Below are positions 2,536 to 54,989 of a stretch of DNA of 54,989 nt, piece after piece. The position numbers and the translations under genes are program-made. The DNA is from a virus: IMG/VR virus record IMGVR_UViG_3300049989_000072, positions 1 to 54,989 of that record, one strand, 5' to 3'. The notes under the pieces are model-generated. The model was not told the DNA's origin, ran no database searches, and saw only the letters and a program-made list of their open reading frames with translations. Within the stretch, counting starts at the first letter, position 1; each line of letters begins with the position of its first letter.

Positions 2536-3651
2536 ATGTCTCAAGAGCTTGACGACTTCCTTATGCACTACGGTGTCAAGGGAATGAAGTGGGGTGTCCG
2601 TAAGGACGATGGTCTGAATCGCAAGGAGCGACGAAAGGCAAAAGAAGAGGCTCGCAAGAAGCTCCCCAAAGAAGTCAAGAAGGGGGTCAGTAATGCCGAC
2701 CTCTTGTTCAAGACCGCGAAGGGTCGCCGGTACGCAGCTTCGTTGAAGCGTCAGATCGAAGCCGATGCCGCAGAGATCGCAAAGAACAACACGAAATTTC
2801 TGGCTAAGGGCGGATTCACCGACGCCGATGTCACTCCGGAGCAGAAGCGTAAGAAGCTTACTCCGCAAGAAATTGCGTGGCTTGCGGTTGCCGGTACCAG
2901 TCTTGCTGTGGTTGCGGCGGCATACGCCTATGATCCCATCAAGAATGCGGTACAAAAGCGAATCGTCGCCAATGTCAAGCCGGGCGACAAAGTTTCTTCC
3001 GGAAACTACACAGAGCTGGTCCATGGCAGCAAGTCGAGGACTTGGCGAGGTAAGAAGGCTGGTGGATATTTCCAGCCAGAAGCTCTGGAGCGCAAGGAAT
3101 TTGAGATTCCCGCGGGAACCACATTCCATCGAATTTCTCGAAAGCCGGAAACCACCTTTCGGTCGGAGACCGGTACCTACGCAACCCACTCGACCGAAGA
3201 CTTCAATCGCTATGTGAACTCTTTTCGTAAAGAGCTTGGTTCCGTCGAGCTGCATCATGTACAGTTCAAGGCGAAGCAGCCCGTTCGTGTTTCGGACTAC
3301 AAGACAAACTCCAGAGCTATGGCTATGGCCATGGAAGGTCGCGTTTCGTCTCAGAGTCCCGTAACGCTGGAAGAAGGCGCAAAGAGATTCCGAGCCGAAG
3401 CCGGTGGGTCGTGGCATCGAGTGGGTTTTAGCGACCCCAGCAAGCCCACCACTGTCCAGAGTTTCTTTGAAATTCTTGAGCACAAGGGTTATGGCGCACT
3501 TGTCGACGAAATGGACGCGGGGGTCATTGGTGAAACCCCTCTGATGGTCTTTGCAAATCGGCTTTTTGACACAAAGTCTTCTTCGGAACTCACCCCCGAG
3601 ATGATTGCTGCTGCTCAGCGAGCGCTCATCGAGATCAACAATAGAAAGTAA
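2536..3651 (+). CDS. HYGVKGMKWGVR-motif protein 2 (basic region, hydrophobic helix, unknown C-terminal domain)
   Basis: N-terminus is MSQELDDFLMHYGVKGMKWGVRKDD, with a hydrophobic helix IAWLAVAGTSLAVVAAAYAY. I cannot place the ~230-aa C-terminal domain. Confidence 0.7.
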   Translation: MSQELDDFLMHYGVKGMKWGVRKDDGLNRKERRKAKEEARKKLPKEVKKGVSNADLLFKTAKGRRYAASLKRQIEADAAEIAKNNTKFLAKGGFTDADVTPEQKRKKLTPQEIAWLAVAGTSLAVVAAAYAYDPIKNAVQKRIVANVKPGDKVSSGNYTELVHGSKSRTWRGKKAGGYFQPEALERKEFEIPAGTTFHRISRKPETTFRSETGTYATHSTEDFNRYVNSFRKELGSVELHHVQFKAKQPVRVSDYKTNSRAMAMAMEGRVSSQSPVTLEEGAKRFRAEAGGSWHRVGFSDPSKPTTVQSFFEILEHKGYGALVDEMDAGVIGETPLMVFANRLFDTKSSSELTPEMIAAAQRALIEINNRK

Positions 3652-3662
3652 GGAGGGGTCAC

Positions 3663-4823
3663 ATGGAAGAACCTCTTGACGACTTCCTTGCTCACTATGG
3701 AGTCAAGGGGATGAAGTGGGGTGTCCGTAAGGACGACGATACCCCCAAGGAGCCTCGAAAGACCCGCGCCGAGAAGAAGATCGAACGCGCAAAGGCCCAA
3801 AGAGAGCGTCGCGAGCGACGTGTGGGCAAGATCCAAGGTCGAGTCAACATCATGGAGACCCGTGTCTCCGAGCTCAACAAGATCGCGGAGACGACAAAGA
3901 ACCCCTTCCGTCGAGCCATGGCCGTAGGTGATGTCAAAGATCTCAAGAAGGATATTCGGAAGTCCCAGAAGGACATCAAGGCAATTCGTGCTGGAAAGTT
4001 CACGGACACCGAGAAAGCGCTCCTTATTGGTGGCGCCACGCTGGCCACTGCAGCTCTCGCATACGGTACTTACAAGGGTATTGAGACTGGCGACTTCCGA
4101 CGTCTTGCCGCAAAGGGTAAGGCCGCTCTCCAGCTTCGAGACCACGTGGACTTCAAAGAGAACAAGGAATTCGCCAACAAGAACTACACGGAGAATGATA
4201 TTTTCCATCGAGTAGTTACCGGAATCAATCCGGGTTGGGGCGATGAGCCTGGAACCTCGATGAACTGTCGTCGGGCTACGCTTGCGTACGAGATGCGTCG
4301 CCGAGGCTACAACGTCAAGGCAACAAAGACGCTTACCGGCGCCGGTCAGACCCCTTTGGGCATGGGAAACGTTCTCGCGAGAGGGGAAAACGCTCCCGAG
4401 CGCGGCGTTCTTTCGTTTGTCTCTAAGACGTTTAGCGAAACCATGGAAAAGTCGAAAAACCCGCAAGCAAAGACGCCGAACCTTGATCTCTCAAACCGAA
4501 TCAAGGCAAGTGGGTCTTGGGGCGCACAGCGAGTTTGGCGCGCGGACGACAATAGTCCCGGAATCCTCGATGCTCTCAGCAAACTTCCTAACGGTGCTCG
4601 AGGTGAGCTCGGTATGAAGTGGAAGATGGGTGGCGGACACAGCATGGCGTGGGAGATCATCAACGGAAAGCCTGTCATCTTTGACACGCAGGTTCTTCAG
4701 CGATACAATACGCCCGAGAAGTTTGAGGAACTCCAGAACATGCTTGAGGAGGCCGCTATTACGCGTCTCGACAACGTCCAACTCAACGAGGACTTCCTCC
4801 TAAGGTGGCTGCAGAATGCTTGA
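3663..4823 (+). CDS. HYGVKGMKWGVR-motif protein 3 with a C-terminal papain-fold toxin-like (Tox-PL1-like) domain
   Basis: N-terminus is MEEPLDDFLAHYGVKGMKWGVRKDD, with helix ALLIGGATLATAALAYGTY. The C-terminus has 'SMNCRRATLAYEMRRRGY' ... 'GGGHSMAWEIINGKPVIFDTQ', a Cys/His/Asp pattern of papain-fold polymorphic-toxin domains. Confidence 0.65.
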   Translation: MEEPLDDFLAHYGVKGMKWGVRKDDDTPKEPRKTRAEKKIERAKAQRERRERRVGKIQGRVNIMETRVSELNKIAETTKNPFRRAMAVGDVKDLKKDIRKSQKDIKAIRAGKFTDTEKALLIGGATLATAALAYGTYKGIETGDFRRLAAKGKAALQLRDHVDFKENKEFANKNYTENDIFHRVVTGINPGWGDEPGTSMNCRRATLAYEMRRRGYNVKATKTLTGAGQTPLGMGNVLARGENAPERGVLSFVSKTFSETMEKSKNPQAKTPNLDLSNRIKASGSWGAQRVWRADDNSPGILDALSKLPNGARGELGMKWKMGGGHSMAWEIINGKPVIFDTQVLQRYNTPEKFEELQNMLEEAAITRLDNVQLNEDFLLRWLQNA

Positions 4824-5055
4824 TCGTCAAGAAGCGACGCTTGTCGTTCAGAAGAACCTTCCCGAGGGTGACATCCAGAATCTCATCGAGTACCAAGATC
4901 TTTACGTCTTCCAGGTCTTTTCCCCAGACCCCGACGAAGGTCAGTACGACCCGTTCTTCTCCGTTCACATGGAGACCGGCGAGTTTCGAGATTTCTCTAT
5001 CCTCAAGGATGGGAATACAGCCCAGATCATCGCTCTCTTCCTCGAGGAAGACTAG
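4816..5055 (+). CDS. small acidic protein; candidate immunity partner of the preceding toxin-like domain
   Basis: The 79-aa ORF overlaps the upstream stop (ATGCTTGA). The function rests only on the toxin-then-small-ORF arrangement. Confidence 0.4.
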   Translation: MLDRQEATLVVQKNLPEGDIQNLIEYQDLYVFQVFSPDPDEGQYDPFFSVHMETGEFRDFSILKDGNTAQIIALFLEED

Positions 5056-5084
5056 TGCCATCGACACCATCTAGGAGGTGACAT

Positions 5085-6344
5085 GTGAGTTTCCGAGATC
5101 GCTTGGCTCATGCAGCCAACGCGTTCGTCCGTAATGACCGAGAGCTTGCTCGGCCGCCGGTAGACTATGGTCCGAGCTACTTTGCTCGCCCAGATCGTCG
5201 TCGAGCAGTATCTCCGACCGATCGCTCGATCGTTTCGTCGATCTACACGCGAATCGGCATCGATGTCACCGCCGTCGACATGCGACACGTTGTGCTCGAT
5301 CAAAATGGAAGATTCTTGAAGTTGAAGGAGAAGAGCGGACTCAACGTTTGTCTCTCTCTGGAAGCCAACATCGACCAGGCAGCTCGACACTTCATGCTGG
5401 ATGCCGTTCTCACGCTCTTTGATGAGGGTGTGGTGGCTCTCGTACCCATCGACACGTCTGTGGATACCACGGACACGGGCGCTTTCGACATCCACTCCAT
5501 GCGAGTCGGGAAGATCACGGGATGGTACCCGGAGCACGTTCGAGTCGACGTCTACAACGAGAAGACAGCTCAGCACGAAGAGCTCATTCTCCTGAAGCGA
5601 AGCGTCGCGATCGTCCAGAACCCCCTCTGGAACGTGATGAACGAGCCAAACTCGACTCTGCAGCGTCTGATTCGGAAGCTTGCTCTCATTGACTCCGTCG
5701 ACGAGCAGACGAGCTCGGGTAAGCTGGACATCATCATCCAGCTGCCCTACACCGTGAAGACGCAGACGAAGCGAGACCAGGCGGAGACCCGCCGAACCGA
5801 ACTTGAGCGCCAGATGAAGGACTCGAAGTACGGTATCGGCTACATCGACGGCACCGAGCGAATCACGCAGCTCAACCGTCCGGCGGAGAACAACATGCTT
5901 CGGCAGGTCGAGTACCTGACCAACATGCTGTACTCGCAGCTTGGTATCACCGAGGCCGTGTTCAACGGTACGGCTGACGAATCCGAGATGCTCAACTACT
6001 ACAACCGGACGATCGAGCCCCTCCTGACTGCTTTCCAGCAGGCAATGGAGCGCTCGTTCCTGACGAAGACGGCAAGGACGCAGCGGCAGGCTATTCGCTT
6101 CTATCGCGACCCGTTCAAGCTGGTTTCGATGGAGAAGATCGCCGAGATCGCGGACAAGTTCACGCGCAACGAGATCGCATCCTCCAACGAGATGCGTGGC
6201 GCAATCGGTATGGCTCCTTCCACGGATCCCAAGGCCGACGAACTCCGCAATGCGAACATGCCCCAGCCCAAGGACGAGGAAAAGCCGTCCGTGAAGCCAA
6301 CAGAGGAAGGAAGCCTTCAAAATGGAAGACGGCCGGAAGCCTGA
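5085..6344 (+). CDS. portal protein (putative)
   Basis: GTG start lies 8 nt after AGGAGG. The 419-aa ORF sits between the terminase block and the protease-capsid gene. The call rests on position, size and general portal-like composition. Confidence 0.6.
   Translation: MSFRDRLAHAANAFVRNDRELARPPVDYGPSYFARPDRRRAVSPTDRSIVSSIYTRIGIDVTAVDMRHVVLDQNGRFLKLKEKSGLNVCLSLEANIDQAARHFMLDAVLTLFDEGVVALVPIDTSVDTTDTGAFDIHSMRVGKITGWYPEHVRVDVYNEKTAQHEELILLKRSVAIVQNPLWNVMNEPNSTLQRLIRKLALIDSVDEQTSSGKLDIIIQLPYTVKTQTKRDQAETRRTELERQMKDSKYGIGYIDGTERITQLNRPAENNMLRQVEYLTNMLYSQLGITEAVFNGTADESEMLNYYNRTIEPLLTAFQQAMERSFLTKTARTQRQAIRFYRDPFKLVSMEKIAEIADKFTRNEIASSNEMRGAIGMAPSTDPKADELRNANMPQPKDEEKPSVKPTEEGSLQNGRRPEA
5300..5310 (+). 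repeat. TCAAAATGGAA 11-mer, copy 4
   Basis: Exact 11-mer inside the portal gene; the ATG is out of frame. Confidence 0.9.
6317..6327 (+). repeat. TCAAAATGGAA 11-mer, copy 5
   Basis: Exact 11-mer; its ATG (6322) is the start of the protease-capsid fusion. Confidence 0.9.
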
Positions 6345-8505
6345 TTTCTCAGGCTACGCCACTAAGGCGGGACTTCTGTGCACGGATGGTCGTACCATCA
6401 CGCCAGAGGCCTTTGCCCACCAGGATGGACTCACTGTCCCTCTCGCCTGGTCACACAAGCAGGGTGCGCCTGCCAACATCCTCGGTCACGGCGTGCTTTC
6501 TGCGCGTCCCGACGGTATGTGGGTAGACGCCTACTTCAACGAGACTACCATGGCTAAGGATGCCAAGGAGCTCGTGCGCCACGGGGACATTCGGTCCCTC
6601 TCCATCCTCGCAAATCAGCTCGAGCACCGTGGTTCCCACGTGGTGAAGGGTCAGATCAACGAGGTGAGCCTGGTTGTCCAGGGGGCGAACCCGGGTGCGT
6701 TCATCGAGGAAGTCTCGCTGGCGCATTCGATCAACGGTGTCGACGTCGTCGATGCCATCATCTACGCGGACCAGCCGCTGGAGCTCTCCGACGAGCTGAG
6801 GCATTCTGCCTCGGACGACGAGGATGAGTTCGAGGGTGAGGATGTTCTGGAGCACTCCAATCAGGAGATCTTCGACAGCCTCACCGACGAGCAGCGGGAG
6901 TTCGTTGGGACTCTTCTCGGGGATGCGCTCAAGCATTCCGCGTCCAATGAGGACGAGGACGAGGACAACGATTCGGAGGAGACCGACATGGCCGACGAGG
7001 TCAAGCACGAGGTTGCCATCGACGAGAGCAAGACCGTTCAGGAGATCCTGGACAGCTTCTCGCCGGAGCAGCTCCGCGTCGTGGAGGGTCTGATCGGTCA
7101 GGGCATCGAGAACGCACTTGCTGCGATCGACGATGATGACGCCGATGACGACAAGAACGACGACACCAAGGACGACAGCGCGGAGCACTCCGCAGCTGAC
7201 GAAGACAACCAGCTCGCACACGCCCACCAGGAGGGTAACACCATGACCATGAAGAACGCTTTCGACGAGGCGAAGAAGGAGCAGCACGGCTCCACGCTGT
7301 CGCACAACCAGCTCGACGTCGACCAGCTCGAGGCGATCCTCGGCCAGGCCAAGTCGTCGTCGAACGGTTCGACGCTGCACGAGTCCTTCCTCGCGCACGC
7401 CGGCACGTACGGCATCGACAACATCGATCTGCTCTTCCCCGACTTCAAGACCCTTCAGTCGACGCCCGAGTTCCTCTCGCGTCGCATGGAGTGGGTCAGC
7501 CACGTCTGGGGCTCGATCAAGCGCGCACCCTTCACGCGCATCAAGTCGGTCTTCGCCGACATCACCACCGAGGAGGCTCGTGCGCGAGGCTACGTCACCG
7601 GTGACCTGAAGAAGGACGAGGTGTTCAAGCTCCTCGACCGCAAGACCACGCCGCAGACCATCTACAAGAAGCAGAAGCTCGACCGCGATGACATCCTCGA
7701 CATCACGGACATCGACATCATCGTCTGGCTCAAGGCCGAGATGCGCATCATGCTCGACGAGGAGATCGCCGGCGCGATCCTGATCGGTGACGGCCGCGAG
7801 GTCGACTCGCCCGACAAGATCAAGGAGGACCACCTCCGTCCGATCGCCTCCGACCACGAGATGTACGCTCACCCGGTGAACGTCGCCTCGAACACGGAGC
7901 CGCGTCAGCTCGTCAAGACGATCCTGCGTTCGCGCAAGCACTACAAGGGCTCCGGCACGCCGACGCTCTACACGACGGACGACACCCTCACGGACCTCAT
8001 CCTCATCGAGGACCGCATGGGCCGTCGCCTCTACGAGACGGAGCAGTCCCTCGCGGCAGCTCTTCGCGTGAAGGACATCGTCGTCGTCGAGGTCTTCGAC
8101 CGCGCACCCGACGTCATGGCCATCATCGTGAACCTGCTCGACTACACCGTCGGTGCAGACCGCGGTGGCGCCGTCACGTTCTTCGAGGACTTCGACATCG
8201 ACTTCAACCAGCAGAAGTACCTGCTGGAGACGCGCATCTCGGGTGCGCTCACGAAGGCGAAGTCGGCTCTCGTGTTCCGCCGCACCGCCGGCACCGTCGT
8301 CACGGCTGAGGAGCCCACGTTCGACAACACGGACAACACGCTGACCATCCCGACGGTCACGGGCGTCCAGTACCGCATCGACGACCAGAACGCAGCTGCC
8401 GGCGACCGTGTGATCACCGAGGGCGTCGACGTCACGGCACACGCCAAGGCCGGCTACCAGCTCGCCGACGGCTCGACCAAGTCCTGGTCGTACGAGCCCG
8501 TCTGA
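6322..8505 (+). CDS. prohead protease - acidic scaffold - major capsid protein fusion
   Basis: The N-terminus is HK97-type S78 protease-like (PLAWSHKQG..ILGHG.., SLSILANQ, INEVSLVVQGANPGAFIEE). A D/E-rich linker with a duplicated EI(F/L)DS..EQ segment follows, then a ~420-aa capsid-like C-terminal part. Confidence 0.75.
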   Translation: MEDGRKPDFSGYATKAGLLCTDGRTITPEAFAHQDGLTVPLAWSHKQGAPANILGHGVLSARPDGMWVDAYFNETTMAKDAKELVRHGDIRSLSILANQLEHRGSHVVKGQINEVSLVVQGANPGAFIEEVSLAHSINGVDVVDAIIYADQPLELSDELRHSASDDEDEFEGEDVLEHSNQEIFDSLTDEQREFVGTLLGDALKHSASNEDEDEDNDSEETDMADEVKHEVAIDESKTVQEILDSFSPEQLRVVEGLIGQGIENALAAIDDDDADDDKNDDTKDDSAEHSAADEDNQLAHAHQEGNTMTMKNAFDEAKKEQHGSTLSHNQLDVDQLEAILGQAKSSSNGSTLHESFLAHAGTYGIDNIDLLFPDFKTLQSTPEFLSRRMEWVSHVWGSIKRAPFTRIKSVFADITTEEARARGYVTGDLKKDEVFKLLDRKTTPQTIYKKQKLDRDDILDITDIDIIVWLKAEMRIMLDEEIAGAILIGDGREVDSPDKIKEDHLRPIASDHEMYAHPVNVASNTEPRQLVKTILRSRKHYKGSGTPTLYTTDDTLTDLILIEDRMGRRLYETEQSLAAALRVKDIVVVEVFDRAPDVMAIIVNLLDYTVGADRGGAVTFFEDFDIDFNQQKYLLETRISGALTKAKSALVFRRTAGTVVTAEEPTFDNTDNTLTIPTVTGVQYRIDDQNAAAGDRVITEGVDVTAHAKAGYQLADGSTKSWSYEPV

Positions 8506-8531
8506 TCGGCTGACCTAAGGGGTGAAACGAA

Positions 8532-8918
8532 ATGCCGAAGTTCACAGGAGTTGTTGGCTACGGCCAGAGCGTACAGACCGATCCAGGAGTGTATGAGGAC
8601 CAGATCGTCGAGCGAAAGCTCTCTGGCGACGTTCTCAAGAATTCCCGGAAGATGCAGGACGGGACAGGCCCCATCAATGGGGATCTCACGCCCAGCAATT
8701 CGATCAGTCTTGTCGCCGATGCGTACGCGCGAGAGAACTTCTGGCGAATTCGGTATATTTCGTGGGCGGGGACGCTCTGGACGGTGACAGATGTGACCGT
8801 GGAGCGTCCCCGCCTCATCCTGAGGCTAGGAAAGGTGTACAATGGACCTCGACCTGCTGATACAGGCGAAGAGGGAACGCTGGCTGGAGCTTCAAGCTCT
8901 ACTGACGGCGATTCCTGA
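8532..8918 (+). CDS. head-tail joining / head-closure-like protein (tentative)
   Basis: 128-aa ORF directly after the capsid gene, with AAGGGGTG upstream. The C-terminal 'WRIRYISWAGTLWTVTDVTVERPRLILRLG' resembles head-closure proteins. Confidence 0.35.
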   Translation: MPKFTGVVGYGQSVQTDPGVYEDQIVERKLSGDVLKNSRKMQDGTGPINGDLTPSNSISLVADAYARENFWRIRYISWAGTLWTVTDVTVERPRLILRLGKVYNGPRPADTGEEGTLAGASSSTDGDS

Positions 8919-9177
8919 CGTCACAGAGGCATATTTCCAGCAGCCTAACAACGTGGACATGCGGTATCCCTGCATTGTCTTCGCAGCGGACGTTGTGGCT
9001 ACCCAGCATGCGTCCAACCGGCCATATTTTCGACAGCAGCGGTATCTGGTGACCATCATGGACACTCGACCGAACACACCTATCGAGCAGTATGTGGCAG
9101 AAATGCCCACGGCCAAGTTCAACAGACGATTCACAGCGGATAAACTGCACCACGTTGTGTACACTCTCTTCTTCTAA
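8842..9177 (+). CDS. neck / tail-completion-like protein (tentative)
   Basis: 111-aa ORF between the head-closure-like and tail-tube genes. 'RYPCIVF..' is reminiscent of tail-completion (DUF3168-like) proteins. Confidence 0.3.
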   Translation: MDLDLLIQAKRERWLELQALLTAIPDVTEAYFQQPNNVDMRYPCIVFAADVVATQHASNRPYFRQQRYLVTIMDTRPNTPIEQYVAEMPTAKFNRRFTADKLHHVVYTLFF

Positions 9178-9192
9178 GGAGCAACAAGACTC

Positions 9193-9948
9193 ATGAGCAA
9201 GATCAAGTGGGATCAGGTAGGCGAGCGCAAGTTCGAGAACGGCGTCGACCACGGCGTCCTCTACCTTCCCGACGAGACGGGTGTCTACGACACCGGCTTC
9301 GCATGGAACGGTCTCGTGTCGGTCACGGAGAAGCCCTCGGGCGCCGAGCCGACCCCCGTCTACGCGGACAACATCAAGTACATCACGCTGATCTCCGCCG
9401 AGGAGTACGCAGCGTCGATCGAGGCCATCACCTACCCCGACGAGTTCATGCTCTGCGACGGTACGGCTGAGGTTTCGGTGGGCGTCTACGCCGGTCAGCA
9501 GGCTCGTCGAGCGTTCGGTCTCTCGTACCGCACGAAGATCGGCGATGACCTGAGCCCGGAGCGTGGGTACAAGATCCACCTCATCTACGGCGCGCTCGCA
9601 GCGCCCACGGAGAAGGCCCACACGACCATCAACGACTCGCCCGAGGCCGCCACGTTCACGTGGGAGCTCTCGACGACGCCGGTGGAGATCGAGGGCTTCA
9701 AGCCCACGGCCTCGCTGGTCATCGACTCGACCAAGGTCGACGCGGCGAAGCTGAAGACGCTCGAGGACCTGCTGTACGGCACGGCTTCCTCCGAGCCCTC
9801 GCTCCCCACGCCCGATGAGGTCGTGGCGATCTTCGGCGCAGCCCCCGCAGGTGCTCAGACGATGGGGACCCAGTCGTTCTCCAACTCGGAGGACAACTCG
9901 ACGGACTTCGAGGTCCAGTCGGGCGGCGACGCCGACAACGCGTTCTAA
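9193..9948 (+). CDS. major tail (tube) protein, copy 1
   Basis: AAGGAGCAAC lies upstream. N-terminus 'KWDQVGERKFENGVDHGVLYLPDETG..FAWNGLVSVTEKP' is a tail-tube-type opening as I recall it. The position before the chaperone and tape measure fits. Confidence 0.55.
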   Translation: MSKIKWDQVGERKFENGVDHGVLYLPDETGVYDTGFAWNGLVSVTEKPSGAEPTPVYADNIKYITLISAEEYAASIEAITYPDEFMLCDGTAEVSVGVYAGQQARRAFGLSYRTKIGDDLSPERGYKIHLIYGALAAPTEKAHTTINDSPEAATFTWELSTTPVEIEGFKPTASLVIDSTKVDAAKLKTLEDLLYGTASSEPSLPTPDEVVAIFGAAPAGAQTMGTQSFSNSEDNSTDFEVQSGGDADNAF

Positions 9949-9973
9949 TCTAGAACGGAAAGGAGAACAGGGA

Positions 9974-10528
9974 GTGCTAACACTCACCATTCGCGATCAG
10001 GAACACTTCGACGACGAAACAAACAAGTTTGTCGAAGGACCGACCATCGTGACGCTCGAACTCGAGCACTCCCTGTTCTCCCTCAAGACGTGGGAATCAA
10101 AATGGAAGAAGCCATTCCTCTCGTCTGACAAAACTTCTGAGGAAACCGTTGACTACGTCAAGATCATGACGCTCAACGACGTTCCTGAGACTGCCTTTGG
10201 GCGTCTCACCCAAGAACATTACAACCAGGTCGCGGAGTACATCAACGATCCTCACACCGCAACCTGGTTCAGCGAGACTCCTGGCGGCCGCTCCGGCCCC
10301 CAAAAGGAGATCATCACTGCGGAGATCATCTACTACTGGATTATTTCCCTCAACATCGACTTCGAGACCCAGTATTGGAATCTCAGTCAACTTCTAGCGC
10401 TCGTTCGCGTTTGCAACGAGAAGAACACGCCGGAAAAGAAGAAGCGAAAGATGAGCATGTCCGATCTGGCAGCTCAACGCCGTGCTCTCAACGAAAAGCG
10501 AAGACGAGACATGGGAACCAAGGGTTAG
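9974..10528 (+). CDS. tail assembly chaperone-like protein
   Basis: GTG follows GGAAAGGAGAAC. 'LEHSLFSLKTWESKWKKPFL' matches a motif I recall from chaperone-position genes of Gram-positive phages, and the tail is basic. Confidence 0.4.
   Translation: MLTLTIRDQEHFDDETNKFVEGPTIVTLELEHSLFSLKTWESKWKKPFLSSDKTSEETVDYVKIMTLNDVPETAFGRLTQEHYNQVAEYINDPHTATWFSETPGGRSGPQKEIITAEIIYYWIISLNIDFETQYWNLSQLLALVRVCNEKNTPEKKKRKMSMSDLAAQRRALNEKRRRDMGTKG
10097..10107 (+). repeat. TCAAAATGGAA 11-mer, copy 6
   Basis: Exact 11-mer inside the chaperone-like gene (encodes ESKWK); the ATG is out of frame. Confidence 0.9.
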
Positions 10529-10536
10529 GAGGTGTC

Positions 10537-11920: not shown

Positions 11921-11927
11921 GTGATCA

Positions 11928-45119: not shown

Positions 45120-45121
45120 AT

Positions 45122-46070: not shown

Positions 46071-46089
46071 ACTACCAAAGGAGAACCCC

Positions 46090-46302: not shown

Positions 46303-46310
46303 TCCACCTC

Positions 46311-46350: not shown

Positions 46351-46354
46351 TTGT

Positions 46355-46386
46355 TGTCGCGAGAATGACTAGGGCTATAGTGAGAG
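46355..46386 (+). promoter_or_regulatory. promoter-like motif P9 (TGTCGCGAGAATGACTAGGGCTATAGTGAGAG)
   Basis: Same register; follows the hairpin at 46311-46350 and precedes ATG 46399. Confidence 0.5.
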
Positions 46387-46398
46387 AAAGGAACCACC

Positions 46399-46539
46399 AT
46401 GCCCAGAATCATCGTCAAGATCCTGCTCAACATCGCCATCGGTGTGCTCATCCGCCAACTGGAAAAGAAGATCCAGAAGGCGGTTCTGCACCGGATGACG
46501 GTCGACAAGCTGAATCTCATCAGCGAGCCTTCGGGCTAA
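46399..46539 (+). CDS. small membrane peptide (46 aa)
   Basis: P9 lies upstream and GAAAGGAACCACC precedes the ATG. 'IIVKILLNIAIGVLI'. Not in the track. Confidence 0.45.
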   Translation: MPRIIVKILLNIAIGVLIRQLEKKIQKAVLHRMTVDKLNLISEPSG

Positions 46540-46635
46540 CCCATCCACAACCTCGAAAAGCGGGGGCTTCGGCCCTCTCTTTTTGTCTGGGTCGGTGGCC
46601 AGAAATCTTGGAAAAGCCCACTTTTGCAAAAATCT

Positions 46636-46785
46636 TGTGGGAGTTTTCGTCCAACTTTTTTCTGTAGTGGCCAAAAAAGTGGGCAGAGTGGCCAAAAACG
46701 TTTTCAAAAGTGGGCACGTTTCGTCCAACTTTGTGGGACTTCGGTGGGACTTCGTCCAAGTTTTGTGGGACCTTTCGTCCAACTT
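46636..46785 (+). repeat. direct iterons (core GTGGGAC-n-TTCGTCCAAC-TT), about 5 copies
   Basis: Copies are at 46636-46657, 46709-46731, 46732-46744 (partial), 46745-46762 and 46764-46785. They lie in a ~600-bp non-coding, lower-GC region that also has five GTGGCCA / TTGGCCA words. Confidence 0.8.
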
Positions 46786-47075
46786 ATAGGGTGTTTTGGG
46801 CGGTTTTGGACCACTTTTCACAGGAAACTCATAGACTAGTGGCCAATTCTTGAAAACAGTACCAATTCACTATAGAAAAAGTTATTATAGTAGGTAGAGT
46901 AGAAAACGGGCAAAAAATTGGCCATCTGTCCACGAGGAGGACTTTGACATGCAAGACTCGTTGCCGACCCCAGGTTGCGGATGTGGCTACCCATGCCTCG
47001 GCAAGGTCATCCCAAACCCCGACCTCACAGGACTGAGCTCAGGCTGGATAAGTCTTCGATTCTAACGACCCTCAA

Positions 47076-47094
47076 AAGTTGGACGAAGTCCCAC
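47076..47094 (-). repeat. inverted iteron copy (AAGTTGGACGAAGTCCCAC)
   Basis: Reverse complement GTGGGACTTCGTCCAACTT matches the direct iteron core. It sits 17 nt upstream of TATAAT 47112. Confidence 0.8.
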
Positions 47095-47111
47095 GCAGTG
47101 TTTACATGCTA

Positions 47112-47117
47112 TATAAT
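47112..47117 (+). promoter_or_regulatory. consensus -10 hexamer TATAAT upstream of the nuclease-RNAP operon
   Basis: TTTACATGCTATATAATAGAAGG lies 58 nt upstream of ATG 47175. There is no -35 at 17-bp spacing; an inverted iteron copy (47076-47094) occupies that position. Confidence 0.35.
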
Positions 47118-47174
47118 AGAAGGGATAAAGGATGAACGACTACTCAAAGCTTATTTCTTTGTCTGAGGTGACTG

Positions 47175-47480
47175 ATGGCTGATCGCTTGGAGCGGGAGTT
47201 CCAGGCAGAGTTCATCAACGAACTGCGAGAGCGCTACCCCGAGGCCATCATTCTCAAGAATGACTCCGGCTATCAGCAGGGTATCCCGGACTGGATCATG
47301 CTGGTGGATGACCGCTGGTTCATGTTCGAGATCAAGCGCTCCCCGACCGCACCGCTGCGGCCGAATCAGGGCTACTACGTTGACTTGTGCAACGAGATGT
47401 CCTTCGCAGCCTTCGTCTATCCCCAGAACAAGGAGCAGGTGCTCGATGCACTTTCACGATCACTCCGTACTCGAAGGTAG
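47175..47480 (+). CDS. VRR-NUC family nuclease
   Basis: 'EREFQAEFINELR....GIPDWIMLVDDRWFMFEIKRS....PNQ' shows the PD-(D/E)xK pattern of VRR-NUC. GAGGTGACTG precedes the ATG. Confidence 0.65.
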   Translation: MADRLEREFQAEFINELRERYPEAIILKNDSGYQQGIPDWIMLVDDRWFMFEIKRSPTAPLRPNQGYYVDLCNEMSFAAFVYPQNKEQVLDALSRSLRTRR

Positions 47481-48027
47481 GCATTCCTTTCTTAGCCCCA
47501 GCCAGCACCATTGGATCAACGACACGGACGAGAAGTTCGACCGTCGATTCATGAAGCGGCTGTCCACGCTACACGGAAGCCAGCAACACGAGTTCGCCGC
47601 CTCCGCCATTCGCTTGGGCATCCGCCTCGCCGAATCGGAGCAGACGCTCAACCGTTACGTCAACGACTGTATCGGATTCCGCATGGAGCCCGAGGTCATG
47701 CTAGTCGCTGACGAGCACTTCGCCTTTGGCACCGCCGATGCGATCAAGTACCTCAGGCCTCACGGAGATCGCCGTGGCCTACTGAAGATCTTCGACCTGA
47801 AGACCGGTGAGACCCCCACCTCGTTCGTTCAGCTTGTCATCTACGCTGCGTTCTTCTGCATCGAGTATGACGTCAAGCCCATGGACATCGACTACGAGTT
47901 CAGGATCTACCAGTCCGACGACATCAAGATCTTCATCCCCGACCTCGACGACATCGTGAAGGCCTACTCCACGATCGTCAATCGCATCCGACGGATCTAT
48001 GACCTTCAGAGGGAGGTGTCCCTGTGA
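47446..48027 (+). CDS. PD-(D/E)xK (Cas4/RecB-like) nuclease
   Basis: 'SFLSPSQHHW', 'FGTADAIKYL....LLKIFDLKTGE....QLVIYAAFF' resemble the exonuclease motifs. Confidence 0.5.
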   Translation: MHFHDHSVLEGRHSFLSPSQHHWINDTDEKFDRRFMKRLSTLHGSQQHEFAASAIRLGIRLAESEQTLNRYVNDCIGFRMEPEVMLVADEHFAFGTADAIKYLRPHGDRRGLLKIFDLKTGETPTSFVQLVIYAAFFCIEYDVKPMDIDYEFRIYQSDDIKIFIPDLDDIVKAYSTIVNRIRRIYDLQREVSL

Positions 48028-50756
48028 CCGATGAGACCCATGTCAACGCCGACGAGATGATGGACGAAAGTCTCGCTCACTATGGCATTCTTCGTCGTTC
48101 CGGTAGGTACCCTTGGGGTTCCGGTGAAAACCCCTACCAGAACAACATGAACTTCCTGGCGTACGTCTCCGAACTTCAGAAGAAGGGTTGGAGCGAGAAG
48201 CAGATCGCCGAGGGCCTTGGTACCACTACCGGAGCTCTTCGCGATGCTAAGAAGATCGCCAAGACCGCCAATCGAGCCGCAGACCAGTCCCAGGCCCAGC
48301 GCCTCAAGGAGCGTGGGTGGTCGAACGTCGCCATCGGACAGCGAATGGGCATCAACGAGTCGTCGGTTCGCCAACTTCTCGCCCCGAGCAACCGAATCAA
48401 GAACGACAAGCTCCAGTCCACCGCAAATGCGATCCAGAAGCGTGTGGATGAGGTCGGCTACATCGATGTGGGTGCTGGAACCGAGCTTTACCTCGGTGTG
48501 AGTGCCACGCAGCTCAAGACTGCCGTCACCAAGCTCCGTGAAGAGGGTTACACGTACCATTACGTCGACATGCCTCAGCTCGGAACGGGTAAGGACACCC
48601 TCATGAAGGTGTTGGCCAAGCCTGGTATCGACGGCAAGACGATGTACGCCAACAAGCACCTCATCGAGCCCATTGCGGTCTACTCGGAGGACGGTGGTCG
48701 AACCTTCCTAGGCATCGAGAAGCCCAAGCAGGTCGATCTCAACCGCATTGAGGTTCGGTATGGGCCTGATGGCGGTGACGACAGGGACGGAATCATCCAG
48801 CTTCGCCGCGGAGTCGATGACATCTCCCTCGGCGCCTCGAAGTACGCTCAGGTTCGCATCCAGGTGGACGACACCCACTACCTCAAGGGCATGGCTGTCT
48901 ATACAGACGACCTTCCTGATGGCGTGGACATCCGCTTCAACACGAATAAGACCCGTGAGGAAGCTCCCACCAAGCTCGATGCGATGAAGCCGCTCAAGTC
49001 GGACGAAGACAACCCCTTCGGTGCCGTTGTTCGACAGAAGCACTACCTCGACAAGGACGGTAAGCGACAGCTTTCTGCCCTGAACATCGTCGGCGCCATG
49101 AACACCGAGGGTGGCGAAGAGGGTGCCTGGCGAAAGTGGTCTCGAAACCTGTCTTCCCAGATGCTTTCCAAGCAGTCTGCGCCTCTGGCCAAGCAGCAGC
49201 TCGGCATCGCAGGTGATCGTAAGCGCGCAGATCTTGATGAGATCCTCGCTCTGAACAACCCTGCCGTCAAGAAGAAGCTTCTCGATGGTATGGCTGACGA
49301 TCTCGATGCAGCAGCGGCCCACCTCAAGGCAGCCGGTCTTCCTCGAACCGCGTCTCACGTTCTCCTCCCCTTGACCACCATCAAGGAGACCGAGATCTAT
49401 GCACCCAACTACCGAGATGGCGAGCGAGTCGTTCTGATTCGTCACCCTCATGGTGGTACCTTCGAGATTCCCGAGCTCACGGTCAACAACCGTAACCGTG
49501 AAGCTGGTCGAATCATGAAGGGTGCGCAAGACGCAGTTGGCATCAACCCCAAGGTTGCCCAGCAGCTGTCGGGTGCCGACTTCGATGGCGATACCGTTCT
49601 GGTCATCCCGAACAACAATAAGGCTGTGAAGACTTCCTCCCCTCTCGAGGGCCTGAGGAACTTCGACCCCAAGACGGAGTACCGTGAATACCCTGGTATG
49701 AAGCGGATGTCCTCTGAGGGTACGCAGCTGAAGATGGGTGACATCTCCAACCTGATCACGGATATGACTATCCAGGATGCAACGGAAGCAGAGCTCGCTC
49801 GTGCTGTTCGTCATTCCATGGTGGTCATCGATGCAGAGAAGCACGGCCTCAACTACCAGCAGTCTGCCAAGGACCATGGTATTGCCGAGCTCAAGCGCAA
49901 GTACCAGGGCGATGCCCGTGCTGGTGCCGCAACTCTCATCTCTCGTGCCACCTCCCAGCAGAGGGTGGATGCTCGCAAGCCCCGGCCTGCAGCAGATGGT
50001 GGTCCTGTGGACCCGGAGACGGGTGAGCGTCGTTTCGTCCCCACCGGCGAGACATACGAGCGCCCCGTACGGGACCGCAAGACCAAGGAGATCATCGGCA
50101 CTGAGACGGTCAAGAAGACCCTCACCTCCACCAAGATGGCAGAGACCACCGATGCTCGAACTCTGAGCTCCGGGACTGTGATGGAAGGTGTGTACGCCGA
50201 CCATGCCAATCGTCTCAAGGCCATGGCCAATGAGGCCCGGAAGGCATCGCTTGCAATCAAGCCCATCCCCCAGTCGGCGTCTGCAAAGACCGCCTATGCC
50301 AAGGAGGTAAGTACCCTCCGGGATAAGCTAGATACGGCCCTCCGTAATAAGCCCCTAGAGCGCCGGGCCCAGACAGTCGCCAACATGATCGTCAAGGCCA
50401 AGCGGGATGCAACCCCCTCTATGGATGCGGCTGATCGTAAGAAGATTGCAGGGCAGGCCCTTGCAGAGGCGAGGCTCAGGGTCGGTGCACACAAGGCCCG
50501 TGTTGTGTTCACACCTCGTGAGTGGGAAGCTGTGCAGGCTGGTGCAATCAGCAACTCCTTCCTCACCCAACTGTTGAGCAATGCAGATCTCAATGAGGTA
50601 CGCCAACTGGCCACACCTCGTGACAGACCTGCCATCTCAGCAGCCCTCCTGGCCAGGGCACAGACCATGCTGTCTTCGGGTAACTACTCACAGGCAGATG
50701 TGGCTGATGCACTGGGTGTCAGTGTTAGCACTCTTAACACAGCGCTTCACGGATAG
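48024..50756 (+). CDS. candidate single-chain two-barrel RNA polymerase (YonO / crAss-vRNAP / RdRP-like) with HTH modules
   Basis: 'THYLKGMAVYTDDLPDGVDIRFNTN' resembles the beta DPBB (HGNKGV..EDMP..G..VDIVLNP). 'RVVLIRHPHGG...AVGINPKVAQQLSGADFDGDTVLVI' resembles the beta' DPBB ([11 protein letters not shown]...[24 protein letters not shown]). HTH-like 'WSEKQIAEGLGTTTGAL', 'WSNVAIGQRMGINESSVRQLL' and 'YSQADVADALGVSVSTLNTAL' are present. Confidence 0.55.
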   Translation: MTDETHVNADEMMDESLAHYGILRRSGRYPWGSGENPYQNNMNFLAYVSELQKKGWSEKQIAEGLGTTTGALRDAKKIAKTANRAADQSQAQRLKERGWSNVAIGQRMGINESSVRQLLAPSNRIKNDKLQSTANAIQKRVDEVGYIDVGAGTELYLGVSATQLKTAVTKLREEGYTYHYVDMPQLGTGKDTLMKVLAKPGIDGKTMYANKHLIEPIAVYSEDGGRTFLGIEKPKQVDLNRIEVRYGPDGGDDRDGIIQLRRGVDDISLGASKYAQVRIQVDDTHYLKGMAVYTDDLPDGVDIRFNTNKTREEAPTKLDAMKPLKSDEDNPFGAVVRQKHYLDKDGKRQLSALNIVGAMNTEGGEEGAWRKWSRNLSSQMLSKQSAPLAKQQLGIAGDRKRADLDEILALNNPAVKKKLLDGMADDLDAAAAHLKAAGLPRTASHVLLPLTTIKETEIYAPNYRDGERVVLIRHPHGGTFEIPELTVNNRNREAGRIMKGAQDAVGINPKVAQQLSGADFDGDTVLVIPNNNKAVKTSSPLEGLRNFDPKTEYREYPGMKRMSSEGTQLKMGDISNLITDMTIQDATEAELARAVRHSMVVIDAEKHGLNYQQSAKDHGIAELKRKYQGDARAGAATLISRATSQQRVDARKPRPAADGGPVDPETGERRFVPTGETYERPVRDRKTKEIIGTETVKKTLTSTKMAETTDARTLSSGTVMEGVYADHANRLKAMANEARKASLAIKPIPQSASAKTAYAKEVSTLRDKLDTALRNKPLERRAQTVANMIVKAKRDATPSMDAADRKKIAGQALAEARLRVGAHKARVVFTPREWEAVQAGAISNSFLTQLLSNADLNEVRQLATPRDRPAISAALLARAQTMLSSGNYSQADVADALGVSVSTLNTALHG

Positions 50757-50773
50757 CAGGAAGGTGTAGTGCA

Positions 50774-51022
50774 ATGGACACACAGCAAGTGATGCTGACA
50801 ACTGTTGACAATCCTTTCAATCCTTTCACTCAATGGAATGAATGGTTCGAGTTCGATGAGAGTTCAGGTTACTCAACTTGTTCGCTCCTTGCTCGAATCG
50901 CTTTGACAAGTGATGAGTTGAGTGATAGTGATCAACGGTTGGCAAGAGATGATGCAATCGACATCATCATTCGAGAAATTGGGCCAGGCTTCTACAAGCG
51001 AGTAACTTCGTCTGAAGCTTGA
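50774..51022 (+). CDS. hypothetical protein
   Basis: 82 aa. 'TVDNPFNPFTQWNEWFEFDESSGYSTCSLLARI' is a motif I recall from other phage proteins of unknown function. The segment has lower GC. Confidence 0.5.
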   Translation: MDTQQVMLTTVDNPFNPFTQWNEWFEFDESSGYSTCSLLARIALTSDELSDSDQRLARDDAIDIIIREIGPGFYKRVTSSEA

Positions 51023-51046
51023 CACCTTTGGCTCACCGACGGTGCC

Positions 51047-51081
51047 GGGGGGAGGGGTCTCGAAATTCTGACCCCCCCTCC
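51047..51081 (+). terminator. G/C-rich hairpin after the early/middle region
   Basis: GGGGGGAGGGGTC-TCGAAATTCT-GACCCCCCCTCC (imperfect). A second perfect 8-bp palindrome, CATGCAGG..CCTGCATG, lies at 51210-51237. Confidence 0.45.
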
Positions 51082-51276
51082 GCATCGCCTCCCTCCTCAA
51101 AAATTCCCCGGGGGACATTTTTAGGGAAACATTACTACCCCGGTTGGTTTATCTGGGGGTATCAGGCACAAAAAAACTGGGACTCATCCACCCAATCTCC
51201 TTTCAAGAGCATGCAGGAACTAGTCGTGACCTGCATGTAAGACCTGGTACCCTCAGATAAACTAATTGACAAACAC

Positions 51277-51301
51277 TATAAAAATTCTCCGATCATAGAA
51301 T
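51277..51301 (+). promoter_or_regulatory. module-boundary motif copy B (TATAAAAATTCTCCGATCATAGAAT)
   Basis: Lies 23 nt upstream of ATG 51324, after two hairpins. TTGACA at 51266-51271 is adjacent. Confidence 0.35.
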
Positions 51302-51323
51302 CCACACAGCTTTTGGAGCAGGA

Positions 51324-51749
51324 ATGAAGACGATTCGATCACTGCGTCCGGAAAACTGGGCGTGGCTACACGCAAAGGCCGGGCTGATGCTCTGGTCGGT
51401 TCTGTTTCTCATCTTTACACCGAATACACTGATGTTCAACCTCGGATACCTCATCCCGGTGTTCATCAGTGCGGTGACCATCCTAGGTTTGGCTCTGTCA
51501 GTCTATGGATTCTTCGTTTCTCGGTCAGATGTCATCATTCGTAAGGTTCGAGGCTTTACGATCGAGATCTCAGGCCTCTACGTCGCGATGGCCGGGCCAG
51601 GGGCATATTTCGCAACTCAACTCCTTCTCATTCCCGGGGAAGGAGGCGATCAGCGTATCGCGTTGGGCGCGTTTGCATATTTCGCAACGTCTGCTCTCGT
51701 GGTTCGGATTGTTGAGGTGCACCAGCGTAGAAAGAAGTACATCCGATGA
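51324..51749 (+). CDS. 4-TM membrane protein (holin-like?)
   Basis: 141 aa with four hydrophobic segments and a basic C-terminus (HQRRKKYIR). It is the first gene after the 51.0-51.3 kb non-coding region. Confidence 0.4.
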   Translation: MKTIRSLRPENWAWLHAKAGLMLWSVLFLIFTPNTLMFNLGYLIPVFISAVTILGLALSVYGFFVSRSDVIIRKVRGFTIEISGLYVAMAGPGAYFATQLLLIPGEGGDQRIALGAFAYFATSALVVRIVEVHQRRKKYIR

Positions 51750-53815: not shown

Positions 53816-53835
53816 GGATATTTAGGAGAGCAGTC

Positions 53836-54207
53836 GTGCCTGAAGAGATCGACAACAAGAAGAGCATCCTCAACTCGGTCAAGCTCGGTCTCGACATCAT
53901 CCCCGAGAACGACGAGTACGACCAGGTCGTCATGATGCACATCAATTCCGTCATCGCAAAGCTCGATCAGTTGGGTGTCGATCAGTTCGGCCCCTTCGAA
54001 GTCGAGGACGAGACGGCAAAGTGGTCTGACTTCCTTGGTGAGGACAAGCTCCTCAACATGGTCAAGAGCTATGTCGTTCTCCAGGTGCGGCTGCTCTTCG
54101 ATCCTCCCACCACTTCTTTCCTCCTCGACGCTTTCAACAAGATGTCGCAGGAGATGGAGTGGCGGATCAACGTCCAGACCGAAGGAAAGCGAGTCCTCAG
54201 TGACTAG
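53836..54207 (+). CDS. gp6-like head-tail connector protein (tentative)
   Basis: GTG follows TTTAGGAGAGCAGTC. 'SVKLGLDIIPENDEYDQVVMMHINSVIAKLDQLG' fits the connector/DNA-packaging (QLRG-type) pattern. Confidence 0.4.
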   Translation: MPEEIDNKKSILNSVKLGLDIIPENDEYDQVVMMHINSVIAKLDQLGVDQFGPFEVEDETAKWSDFLGEDKLLNMVKSYVVLQVRLLFDPPTTSFLLDAFNKMSQEMEWRINVQTEGKRVLSD

Positions 54208-54989
54208 TCCCGAAGACTTCCTGAAGCACTACGGTGTCAAGGGGATGAAGTGGGGCGTTCGCAAGGATCGGGATATTTCGGGCGGTTCTTCGGTCCCTGA
54301 GCACGAGCGGACAGAGGCGGTCGTCGTCCTTCAAGAAAAGTTGAAGGATGGCGGCTCTCTGACCGTCCTCAAGGATCCCCCCGGGGCTATCGCACGCTTC
54401 CGAGCAAGGCATAGCAAGAAGTTCCGCAAGGAGATGAAGAAGGATCACTTCTTTACCCTTAAGGATGCAGACGGAAACAAGGTTGGCGACGCGTCTTTCC
54501 GCCAAGACAGCCCTACGTCCCTCAATCTTGAGTGGATTGGTGTCTCCTCGAAGCATCGTGGGAAGGGCTATGCCAGTGCCGCACTCAGAGGTGTCATTCG
54601 CTACGCCCAGGACAACGGTCTAGAGCGTCTTACGCTCGAGGTCCCCGGAGCCTCCCCCGACGCACTCCACATCTACACCAAGCTTGGCTTCAAGGTCCTT
54701 GATCAGGTCGCTGGCTCGTCGGAAGATGACTTCTGGGGTGGTCTGACCAACATGGAGATGCTGATTCCTCAGGATTCGGTTCGACACTCCGACTTTGACC
54801 CCCAAGAGGTGGTGAACTACATCGTGGAAGCACTCAACAACCCCACGCCCTCCGACTTCCTCAAGCACTACGGTGTCAAGGGGATGAAGTGGGGCGTTCG
54901 CAAGGATCGAGTCAAGAAGGCTCGCAAGCCCAAGCGCACTCCGTCCGAGCAGCACATCGAATCTCGGAAGATCAAGCGCAAGAAGCTTT
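54200..54989 (+). CDS. 5' part of the junction-spanning GNAT acetyltransferase carrying two HYGVKGMKWGVRK motifs (continues at nt 128..345)
   Basis: It is absent from the ORF track because it runs off the window end. GTG 54200 starts VTSPEDFLKHYGVKGMKWGVRKDRD. GNAT motif A is 'LEWIGVSSKHRGKGYASAALRGVIRYAQDNGLERLTLEV....ALHIYTKLGFKV', followed by a second 'PSDFLKHYGVKGMKWGVRKDR'. Confidence 0.65.
   Translation, partial: MTSPEDFLKHYGVKGMKWGVRKDRDISGGSSVPEHERTEAVVVLQEKLKDGGSLTVLKDPPGAIARFRARHSKKFRKEMKKDHFFTLKDADGNKVGDASFRQDSPTSLNLEWIGVSSKHRGKGYASAALRGVIRYAQDNGLERLTLEVPGASPDALHIYTKLGFKVLDQVAGSSEDDFWGGLTNMEMLIPQDSVRHSDFDPQEVVNYIVEALNNPTPSDFLKHYGVKGMKWGVRKDRVKKARKPKRTPSEQHIESRKIKRKKL
54863..54989. 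repeat. terminal overlap; identical to nt 1-127
   Basis: Same 127-nt string as the window start. Confidence 0.9.

Follow-up and report, generated by a model that had tools for sequence, protein, structure and literature searches.

The stretch analyzed here, called the window, is the whole of IMG/VR virus record IMGVR_UViG_3300049989_000072 (54,989 nucleotides), a phage genome in which the pentamer ATATT is strongly over-represented on one strand. Our subject is this word, the selection that maintains it and the phage protein that may read it. Exact counting over the whole window gives 69 copies on the + strand and one on the − strand, in close agreement with a preliminary description of the sequence that had estimated 65-70 and about one by eye, and whose example coordinates lie within 0-8 nt of the true sites. 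The features on which the analysis depends are listed below.

3065..54279, + strand: field of 69 B-ATATT-Y words (B, any base except A; Y, pyrimidine), located by exact counting
+ strand, ATATT starts 1-23: 3066, 3952, 4198, 8755, 8931, 9024, 11014, 11096, 12807, 13299, 13737, 14777, 16221, 17020, 17282, 18025, 18232, 18378, 18561, 20573, 20712, 21693, 21996
+ strand, ATATT starts 24-46: 23052, 23391, 23473, 24147, 24450, 25587, 26721, 27043, 28023, 28236, 29435, 29849, 30654, 30986, 31142, 31602, 32266, 32540, 33129, 33472, 34017, 34357, 34987
+ strand, ATATT starts 47-69: 35365, 35755, 36319, 36685, 37059, 37931, 38135, 38715, 39655, 39888, 41069, 41423, 41607, 41809, 42920, 43874, 51605, 51677, 52531, 52627, 52800, 53818, 54273
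13408..13414, − strand: the sole − strand copy, GATATTC (AATAT at 13409-13413), within the tape-measure gene
8755..43878, + strand: dense block of 59 copies, about 1.7 per kb, over tail genes, small early-type genes and the replication module
4203..8754, + strand: motif-free stretch 1, with the portal and capsid-protease fusion genes
43879..51604, + strand: motif-free stretch 2, with the 3' part of the helicase gene, Tpt1, small genes, an origin-like region, a VRR-Nuc-like open reading frame (ORF), a Cas4-type exonuclease and the RNA polymerase gene
31202..35065, + strand: gene of a 1287-aa primase/polymerase, homologue of Lactococcus phage 1706 GP55 (tblastn, Pfam), candidate reader of the word
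48024..50756, + strand: gene of a 910-aa YonO/RdRP-like two-barrel RNA polymerase (phrog_4291, 1242 bits), rival reader; no ATATT in the gene

Excess, strand and spacing of the ATATT word

When a base other than A is required on both sides ([CGT]ATATT[CGT]), the counts remain 69 on the + strand and 1 on the − strand, and with a following pyrimidine (ATATT[TC]) they are 66 and 1. The base at −1 is C in 31 copies, G in 30, T in 8 and A in none, and the base at +5 is T in 43, C in 23, G in 3 and A in none, hence the consensus B-ATATT-Y. Under a Markov-2 model 7.3 copies of ATATT were expected, and the word is by far the most over-represented pentamer; ATATTT was observed 43 times for 1.2 expected. 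In six genomes the conserved information was limited to about 9 nt (no A at −2 and −1, the word itself, Y at +5), with no distal element and no informative base past ±2 nt of the word. No description of it was found in the literature searched on actinobacteriophages, ReqiPepy6 and YonO promoters.

The GC content of the window is 57.4%, and a simple coding-potential caller placed 89/89 genes on the + strand. We shuffled synonymous codons inside each of these 89 genes to obtain a codon null. In coding sequence, ATATT was present 51 times compared to 14.6 ± 3.4 after shuffling (z 10.7), and B-ATATT-Y 48 times compared to 8.5 (z 15.4), so that the excess reported by the preliminary description is upheld by the exact count. 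Two reading frames hold most of the copies (xAT ATT, 24; xxA TAT T, 23; the third, ATA TT, 4) and 18 are intergenic; 74% of the copies are thus intragenic, and intergenic DNA represents about 7% of the sequence. A by-product of codon usage is excluded because of the shuffle test, the intergenic copies and a contrast of 0/31 with about 40% in the occupancy of usable sites, detailed below, between blocks of similar codon usage. The excess is clearly maintained by selection at the nucleotide level, as had been proposed.

The rarity of the word on the − strand has a more general basis. We applied the same shuffle to all 32 A/T-only pentamers in four genomes, and nearly all were found at 0-0.2× of expectation (AATAT 0.09-0.16×, TATTA 0.08×, AATTA 0.10×). 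These phage genomes avoid A/T runs in general, across codon junctions; the effect is strong and unexplained. Since A/T-only pentamers are generally rare, the single − strand copy is ordinary background and not a specific ban, and the absence of the palindrome AATATT is predicted in the same way. Of the strand asymmetry first described, the + strand excess is real and the rarity of AATAT as a polar constraint is not. Only the + strand excess of ATATT is anomalous, being 3.5-5.5× over the codon null and about 25-fold over the real A/T-pentamer background.

In the dense block the copies are separated by 605 nt on average (coefficient of variation, CV, 0.76; minimum 82 nt), and the density is even, about 1.5-1.9 per kb in each of three sub-blocks (tail, small-gene and replication). 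Eight copies lie in the primase/polymerase gene, the number given in the preliminary description, and five in the tape-measure gene. No + strand copy was found in 1-3065, 4203-8754 or 43879-51604. We defined as reachable a coding position able to carry B-ATATT-Y without protein change; all genes together have 149 such sites, which are occupied as follows.

Tail genes: 13/31
Small-gene block: 9/25
Replication block: 17/38
51.3-55 kb: 6/19
2.5-4.8 kb: 3/5
Terminase: 0/5
Portal-capsid (motif-free stretch 1): 0/8
Helicase to RNA polymerase: 0/18

About 40% of the reachable sites are filled in the tail, small-gene and replication blocks. By contrast, none of the 31 in the terminase, portal-capsid and helicase-to-RNA-polymerase regions is used (P ~1e-7 at p = 0.4), and the three empty stretches noticed by eye are therefore real. 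Motif-free stretch 2 contains at least three terminator-like hairpins and two copies of a long promoter-like motif, described below, and is thus not one transcription unit. No second word fills the empty stretches, either in the window or in the empty replication module of Streptomyces phage Scap1.

Between 8.7 and 43.9 kb, 38/97 synonymously reachable coding sites are used. The nearest copy is at a median of 125 nt from the unused sites, 59% of which have one within 150 nt, compared to 288 nt and 16% for the nearest other copy of the used sites. With respect to a random choice of 38/97, the spacing is significantly more regular (CV 0.81 vs 1.02, P 0.007) and pairs closer than 150 nt are fewer (4 vs 11.7, P 0.001). 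Use of a site depends on the neighbouring copies, and the selected quantity is therefore roughly one copy per few hundred bases. A filling of about 40% of the protein-neutral opportunities, spaced and on one strand, is among the strongest non-coding selective signals visible in a phage genome.

Relatives, genome context and a long promoter-like motif

The word was counted in relatives of the phage (copies on the + and − strands are separated by a colon).

Streptomyces phage Scap1, GC 61%: ATATT 24:0
Gordonia phage Secretariat, GC 53%: ATATT 113:2
Rhodococcus phage ReqiPepy6, GC 53%: ATATT 163:5
Curtobacterium phage Yotsuba, GC 59%: ATATT 43:14, plus CATATCT 19:0
Faecalibacterium phage FP_oengus, GC 49%: TGATATTT 33:0
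Arthrobacter phage Qui, GC 48%: ATATT 71:38
Arthrobacter phage Circum, GC 45%: polar word absent; B-ATATT-Y 41 on + vs 75 on −
Lactococcus phage 1706, GC 33%: polar word absent; B-ATATT-Y 28 on + vs 92 on −

The bias thus holds in related genomes, being polar in Scap1, Secretariat, ReqiPepy6 and FP_oengus, and not in Circum or 1706. A chance origin of the word in AT-rich relatives was rejected, B-ATATT-Y being rarer on the + than on the − strand in Circum and 1706. The motif-bearing relatives have one flank rule in common (no A at −2/−1, Y at +5, nothing farther out), and the portal, capsid and RNA polymerase genes are without the word in every one examined. In FP_oengus the word is mostly found in the early and replication genes. 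In Scap1 it is confined to 8-24 kb, apart from a copy at the genome start, and the whole replication module is empty, with 0 copies in the polymerase gene. The deposited Scap1 genome opens with ATATT at base 3, the sole copy within its first 8.1 kb. Some word positions of the polymerase gene are common to four genomes, at conserved dipeptides that permit the word. The same core was observed in phages of Actinobacteria and of Faecalibacterium, and one core across two host phyla suggests that the reader is probably phage-encoded. No window gene was both present in all motif-bearing relatives and missing from Circum and 1706. As an inversion test, we looked for genes on the opposite strand: all genes are on + in every relative fetched, save two reverse genes in FP_oengus, neither of which holds a full-consensus copy on either strand. 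Because the genes of all fetched relatives point one way, replication and transcription polarity are not separable in this set.

The IMG/VR record is that of a complete virus, and its ends overlap exactly over 127 bp (1-127 and 54863-54989), which gives a true length of 54,862 bp. The window is a circular assembly with an arbitrary start; the 127-bp terminal direct repeat is an overlap left by the assembly of a circular or permuted genome, and not a terminal repeat of biological origin, and the gene at 54200-54988 continues across the joined ends into 1-345. This gene encodes a GNAT acetyltransferase with DUF7211 repeats at either end (PF23847, 4.5e-29); further matches of the repeat are to numerous PHROGs of unknown function and to a single family of virion structural proteins. 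In cultured relatives the physical ends are located directly past the RNA polymerase gene, and the natural left end should therefore be near 51 kb here. The single sequencing run containing the phage sequence was a leaf-metagenome DNA run (contigs). The nearest relatives share about 58% protein identity, none being closer, and the IMG/VR relatives of the RNA polymerase were all at most 56% identical with short flanks, so no close relative was available for an analysis of site turnover. The phage was assigned to the actinophage/Firmicutes-phage group defined by a GP55-type primase/polymerase and a helix-turn-helix (HTH)-flanked RdRP/YonO-like two-barrel RNA polymerase (bioRxiv 10.1101/842583). 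Other genes and regions of interest are the following.

377..2131, + strand: terminase large subunit gene, 64-69% identical to annotated terminases; no ATATT
5085-6344, + strand: portal gene (tblastn to the annotated Scap1 and Yotsuba portal); no ATATT
6322-8505, + strand: capsid-protease fusion gene (tblastn to the annotated Scap1 and Yotsuba capsid genes); no ATATT
35788-36267: strand-annealing protein
43120..44397, + strand: helicase, 1706 gp67-like (phrog_62 at 1.7e-54), present in 7/7 relatives compared
44409-44891: Tpt1/KptA RNA 2'-phosphotransferase gene (PF01885, 7e-28), not found in the seven relatives compared
46580..46950, no strand assigned: putative origin-like region, non-coding and iteron-bearing, about midway through motif-free stretch 2
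47175-47480: 101-aa ORF overlooked by the gene caller; relatives carry a VRR-Nuc endonuclease there, immediately ahead of the Cas4-type exonuclease
47446-48027: Cas4-type exonuclease

The origin-like region is preceded by a terminator-like hairpin (46562-46577). Its iterons are TTTCGTCCAACTTT, present four times with an inverted copy at 47074-47087, and AGTGGCCAAAAA and AAAAGTGGGC, three times each. The first iteron includes CCAAC, the in-vitro primase word of phage 1706 GP55.

The preliminary description had placed an RNAP operon in motif-free stretch 2; there is none, only the one gene of the 910-aa YonO-like polymerase. In this protein Pfam finds RdRP weakly at residues 510-610, and both ends match HTH/sigma-70 region 4 (residues 90-119 and 887-909). 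In the ReqiPepy6 record, the homologue is annotated as resembling gp75 of Lactococcus phage 1706, 'structural protein', a label which suggests that the RNA polymerase may be carried in the virion and injected. A second repeated element was found upstream of genes, together with a conserved leader.

19159..46398, + strand: promoter-like motif of about 32 nt, nine copies; consensus TCCTCGCAAGAATnACAnGnCCTATAGTGAGAnCC, core …CTCGCAAGAATnACAnnGnCTATAGTGAGA…, ending …CTATAGTGAGA
19159-19212, 19613-19666, 19973-20026, 20610-20663, 22692-22745, 24959-25012, 35698-35751, 46026-46079, 46344-46397, + strand: the copies of the long motif
19191, 19645 (weaker), 20005, 20642, 22724, 24991, 35730, 46058, 46376, + strand: their TATAGT/ATAGTG anchors
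20712-20738, 23391-23419, 25587-25611, 28236-28261, 36319-36344: conserved leader CATATTCTCTTGAAAGGAGAAC with ATATT, 25-29 nt before five start codons

The long motif is present nine times on the + strand and 0 times on the − strand, 22-57 nt upstream of start codons. Related long motifs occupy the same early-gene map position in Scap1, Secretariat, ReqiPepy6, Yotsuba, Circum and Qui (about 22 copies in Qui), where they read TATAATGAGA and similar, with CTATAATGAGA as the ReqiPepy6 form. The long motif is a signal separate from the ATATT field, and a likelier target of the YonO-like RNA polymerase, whose promoter it probably represents. In relatives, ATATT lies within the free A/T-rich spacer of 8 of about 56 long promoters, which looks like opportunistic placement. 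The ribosome-binding block of the leader, CTCTTGAAAGGAGAA, also follows long promoters without ATATT. TCGCAAG was counted 23 times on the + strand and 0 times on the − strand; about 9 of these are in the long motif and the others are unexplained.

Candidate readers of the word

Among the four roles put forward without preference by the preliminary description (a −10-like or initiator element, a pause or processing signal, a primase or nicking site, a modification target), we rank a primase site first. Tentatively, and as the most likely of several candidates, B-ATATT-Y may mark where, on the template, the AEP primase domain of the phage's GP55-type helicase-primase-PolB replicase starts. By tblastn this 1287-aa protein aligns along its full length, at 36-58% identity, with 'DNA primase/polymerase' genes from 253 phages, among them the Lactococcus 1706 group; over the same length, identity to the 1706-group proteins themselves is 36-39%. 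Its N-terminal part has a DUF5906/Pox_D5 helicase match (residues 175-401; Pfam). No further primase gene was seen among the window genes scanned. GP55 is a sequence-dependent RNA primase whose favoured 5-nt template word is 5'-CCAAC-3'; it initiates at base 2 in the template word, where T is accepted, with ATP, 5' flaps of the displaced strand are where its helicase loads, and its specificity was described as loose (PMC12205980). ATATT and CCAAC both fit N-Y-A-N-Y, and the T at position 2 of ATATT corresponds to the GP55 start position in CCAAC/CTAAC. The compact element of about 9 nt has the format of primase sites, unlike the long phage promoter in the same genome; its uniform density in late, early-type and replication genes suggests a per-length rather than a per-gene function; and from the geometry of GP55 the signal would be expected on one strand only, the lagging-strand template of a fork travelling in the direction of transcription. 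The dependence of site use on spacing and the exclusion of A immediately 5' of the word are also in keeping with priming.

According to this model, the fork would run rightward, co-directionally with all 89 genes, and the helicase would travel 5'→3' along the displaced + strand, the lagging-strand template. On meeting ATATT there, the primase would begin a short RNA primer, by analogy with GP55 probably with ATP opposite the first T, and every primer would be elongated leftward as an Okazaki fragment. Selection would then write ATATT into synonymous and intergenic positions wherever no neighbouring copy exists; it must supply the sites because chance gives almost none in a 57% GC genome avoiding A/T runs. 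The exclusion of A and the tolerance of T at −1/−2, which would be copied next, could keep weak rU:dA pairs out of the nascent primer. GC or AT skew was uninformative on the direction of the fork, since every gene is on one strand.

Several observations weigh against the primase. The primase and RNA polymerase genes co-occur in the same 250 or so phages, so that gene presence cannot separate the two enzymes as readers. Circum has both (57% and 55% identity) yet no polar word, and 1706 likewise; the enzyme-bearing relatives thus comprise six or seven with the word, and these two without. CCAAC, the one site established experimentally, is neither polar nor enriched in 1706 (38 vs 55), and the same applies to the window (74 vs 85 expected). 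The enzyme of 1706, a phage itself without the polar word, favoured another template over CATATTT-bearing ones. The pentamers of the T7 primase show no polarity, with 161 on the + strand and 159 on the − strand. The replication module of Scap1, including its polymerase gene, is without the word, and the gene-specific gaps are unexplained by the priming model and look more like an expression-linked constraint. Finally, as all genes are on the + strand, a signal linked to transcription or RNA fits the polarity equally well.

A transcription signal is an unlikely alternative. ATATT would be a minimal promoter, an initiator, or a loading or pause site on the non-template strand, for the YonO-like or the host RNA polymerase, giving sense-strand starts scattered over long operons. 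The word always has the sense orientation, it is enriched about 2.5× at 10-60 nt before start codons (62 vs 27 expected, four genomes), five copies are within the conserved leader CATATTCTCTTGAAAGGAGAAC, and the gaps at the portal, capsid and RNA polymerase genes point more readily to expression than to replication. Short A/T-rich promoters have been reported for other sigma-less two-barrel phage polymerases. However, a family-conserved promoter-like motif of about 32 nt already precedes the early genes, and for about 75% of the ATATT copies the next start codon is over 100 nt away, matching the uniform expectation. There is no fixed upstream position, the intergenic copies being 7 to 164 nt from the start codon, and no start-site-like or upstream information past −2 and +6. 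The family-conserved motif, the distances to start codons and the narrow sequence information weaken the −10-like or initiator role proposed earlier. One copy sits 24 nt downstream of a long promoter, many small genes are without any copy, and the empty 43.9-51.6 kb covers several transcription units, two of them with long promoters. We also know of no promoter set with one site per 300-600 nt inside genes.

An RNA-level signal appears improbable. AUAUU(U/C) in the mRNA would be a processing, decay or other RNA-binding site for a phage factor tuning stability, avoided where a stable abundant mRNA is needed (capsid, portal, virion RNA polymerase). The restriction of the word to the sense strand and its absence from the head genes and the RNA polymerase gene across relatives are in agreement with this, and a resemblance to RNA helicases was described for the 1706 gp67-type helicase (PMC12205980). 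In local RNA folds the word is more often unpaired than random positions (0.62 vs 0.41), but other A/T-rich pentamers show the same tendency (0.55, P 0.17), and no association of ATATT with hairpins, terminators or pauses was found. Moreover, positive selection for an occupancy of about 40%, evenly spaced, in the genes of the polymerase (8 copies) and the tape measure (5 copies) is difficult to reconcile with destabilisation. The hosts, Actinobacteria and Clostridia, have different RNases, and none was identified in the phage.

Still less probable is a phage nickase cutting the + strand at ATATT, as in the T5, tf/LUZ24-like and phiKMV-like phages. In favour are a short, polar, over-represented word with all genes on a single strand, the absence of the palindrome AATATT, and a Tpt1-family gene at 44409-44891, a family whose enzymes can cap 5'-phosphate ends. 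Nevertheless, the 69-163 sites per genome outnumber those of known nicked phages by an order of magnitude, the family has no conserved nickase candidate, Tpt1 is not common to the relatives compared, and the missing palindrome is accounted for by the generic rarity of A/T runs.

A Chi-like signal is very improbable. It would attenuate a helicase-nuclease (host AdnAB/RecBCD, or the phage helicase with the Cas4-type exonuclease) and so protect or recombine linear phage DNA entered from one end. Chi is a known case of polar over-represented short words in phages (PMC12315714), and the genes of this phage include a helicase, a Cas4-type exonuclease and a strand-annealing protein. Chi-rich lambdoid phages are, however, those without their own recombination module (PMC12315714), and the phage has one (annealing protein 35788-36267, exonuclease 47446-48027). 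The same A/T core serves two host phyla, an A/T-only pentamer should not be frequent in hosts of 65-72% GC, and a 3'-strand reader that entered at the right-hand physical end would meet no site over the first 7 kb.

Evasion of an orientation-dependent restriction enzyme (Type III-like, compare T7 CAGCAG, 0 on + vs 36 on −, with 69 vs 1 for ATATT here), or a by-product of codon or dipeptide usage, is hardly credible and largely refuted, since evasion accounts for the loss of one orientation and not for the 3.5-5.5× gain of the other, is not needed for a − strand at the generic A/T-pentamer background, and the by-product conflicts with the shuffle z of 10.7-15.4, the intergenic copies and the unequal occupancy of the blocks. 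A modification target would not explain the excess.

Taken together, these results lead us back to the primase start sites as the preferred reading. In a slightly less probable extension, this phage lineage (about 200 sequenced isolates with gut and environmental relatives) may have rewritten about 40% of its synonymous opportunities as an even, one-strand ATATT start-site track for a single-polypeptide helicase-primase-polymerase. If true, this would be the first genome-wide sculpting for lagging-strand priming, and replication would be strictly unidirectional and co-oriented with transcription. The group bearing the word includes hundreds of culturable SEA-PHAGES isolates (Gordonia, Streptomyces, Arthrobacter) and human gut relatives. 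If the primase reads the word, it offers a test of lagging-strand organisation by a four-in-one replicase; if the YonO-type RNA polymerase does, a test of how a sigma-less polymerase finds DNA; if neither, a new polar process would be implied. In each case, the ATATT signal would be lost if these phages were recoded synonymously or codon-optimised.

Comparison with known systems

The closest parallel is GP55 of phage 1706 (PMC12205980). A homologous enzyme is encoded in the window, both words are 5-nt with a pyrimidine at positions 2 and 5 and A at 3, and the loading of the GP55 helicase on the displaced strand fits a one-strand signal; unlike ATATT here, CCAAC is neither enriched nor polar in 1706. 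The T7 gene 4 primase sites (5'-GGGTC, TGGTC, GTGTC) are similarly short template words, read by a helicase-primase moving 5'→3' on the lagging-strand template of a genome with all genes one way. In contrast to ATATT, they are equal on both strands and barely above expectation, with no genome-wide sculpting.

Chi in lambdoid phages (PMC12315714) and the KOPS and SRS of chromosomes are also short polar over-represented words for a strand-tracking enzyme. Their readers belong to the host and the words are host-specific and G-rich, whereas the ATATT core is A/T-only and cross-phylum, in a phage with its own recombination genes. The EcoP15I sites of T7 show the same complete one-orientation bias with all genes one way, but reflect the loss of one orientation, compared here to a large + strand gain with the other strand at background.

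The nick sites of T5, tf/LUZ24-like and phiKMV-like phages are one-strand consensus words in phages with co-directional genes, with 4-15 sites of 9-19 nt; ATATT differs by its 69-163 sites of 7-9 nt. The stoperators of cluster A mycobacteriophages are likewise many asymmetric sites oriented with transcription. They are 13 bp long, mainly intergenic and repressor-bound in temperate phages, unlike the ATATT word of 7-9 nt, which is mostly intragenic in a phage where no integrase, repressor or other lysogeny gene was seen among the 30 or so proteins scanned.

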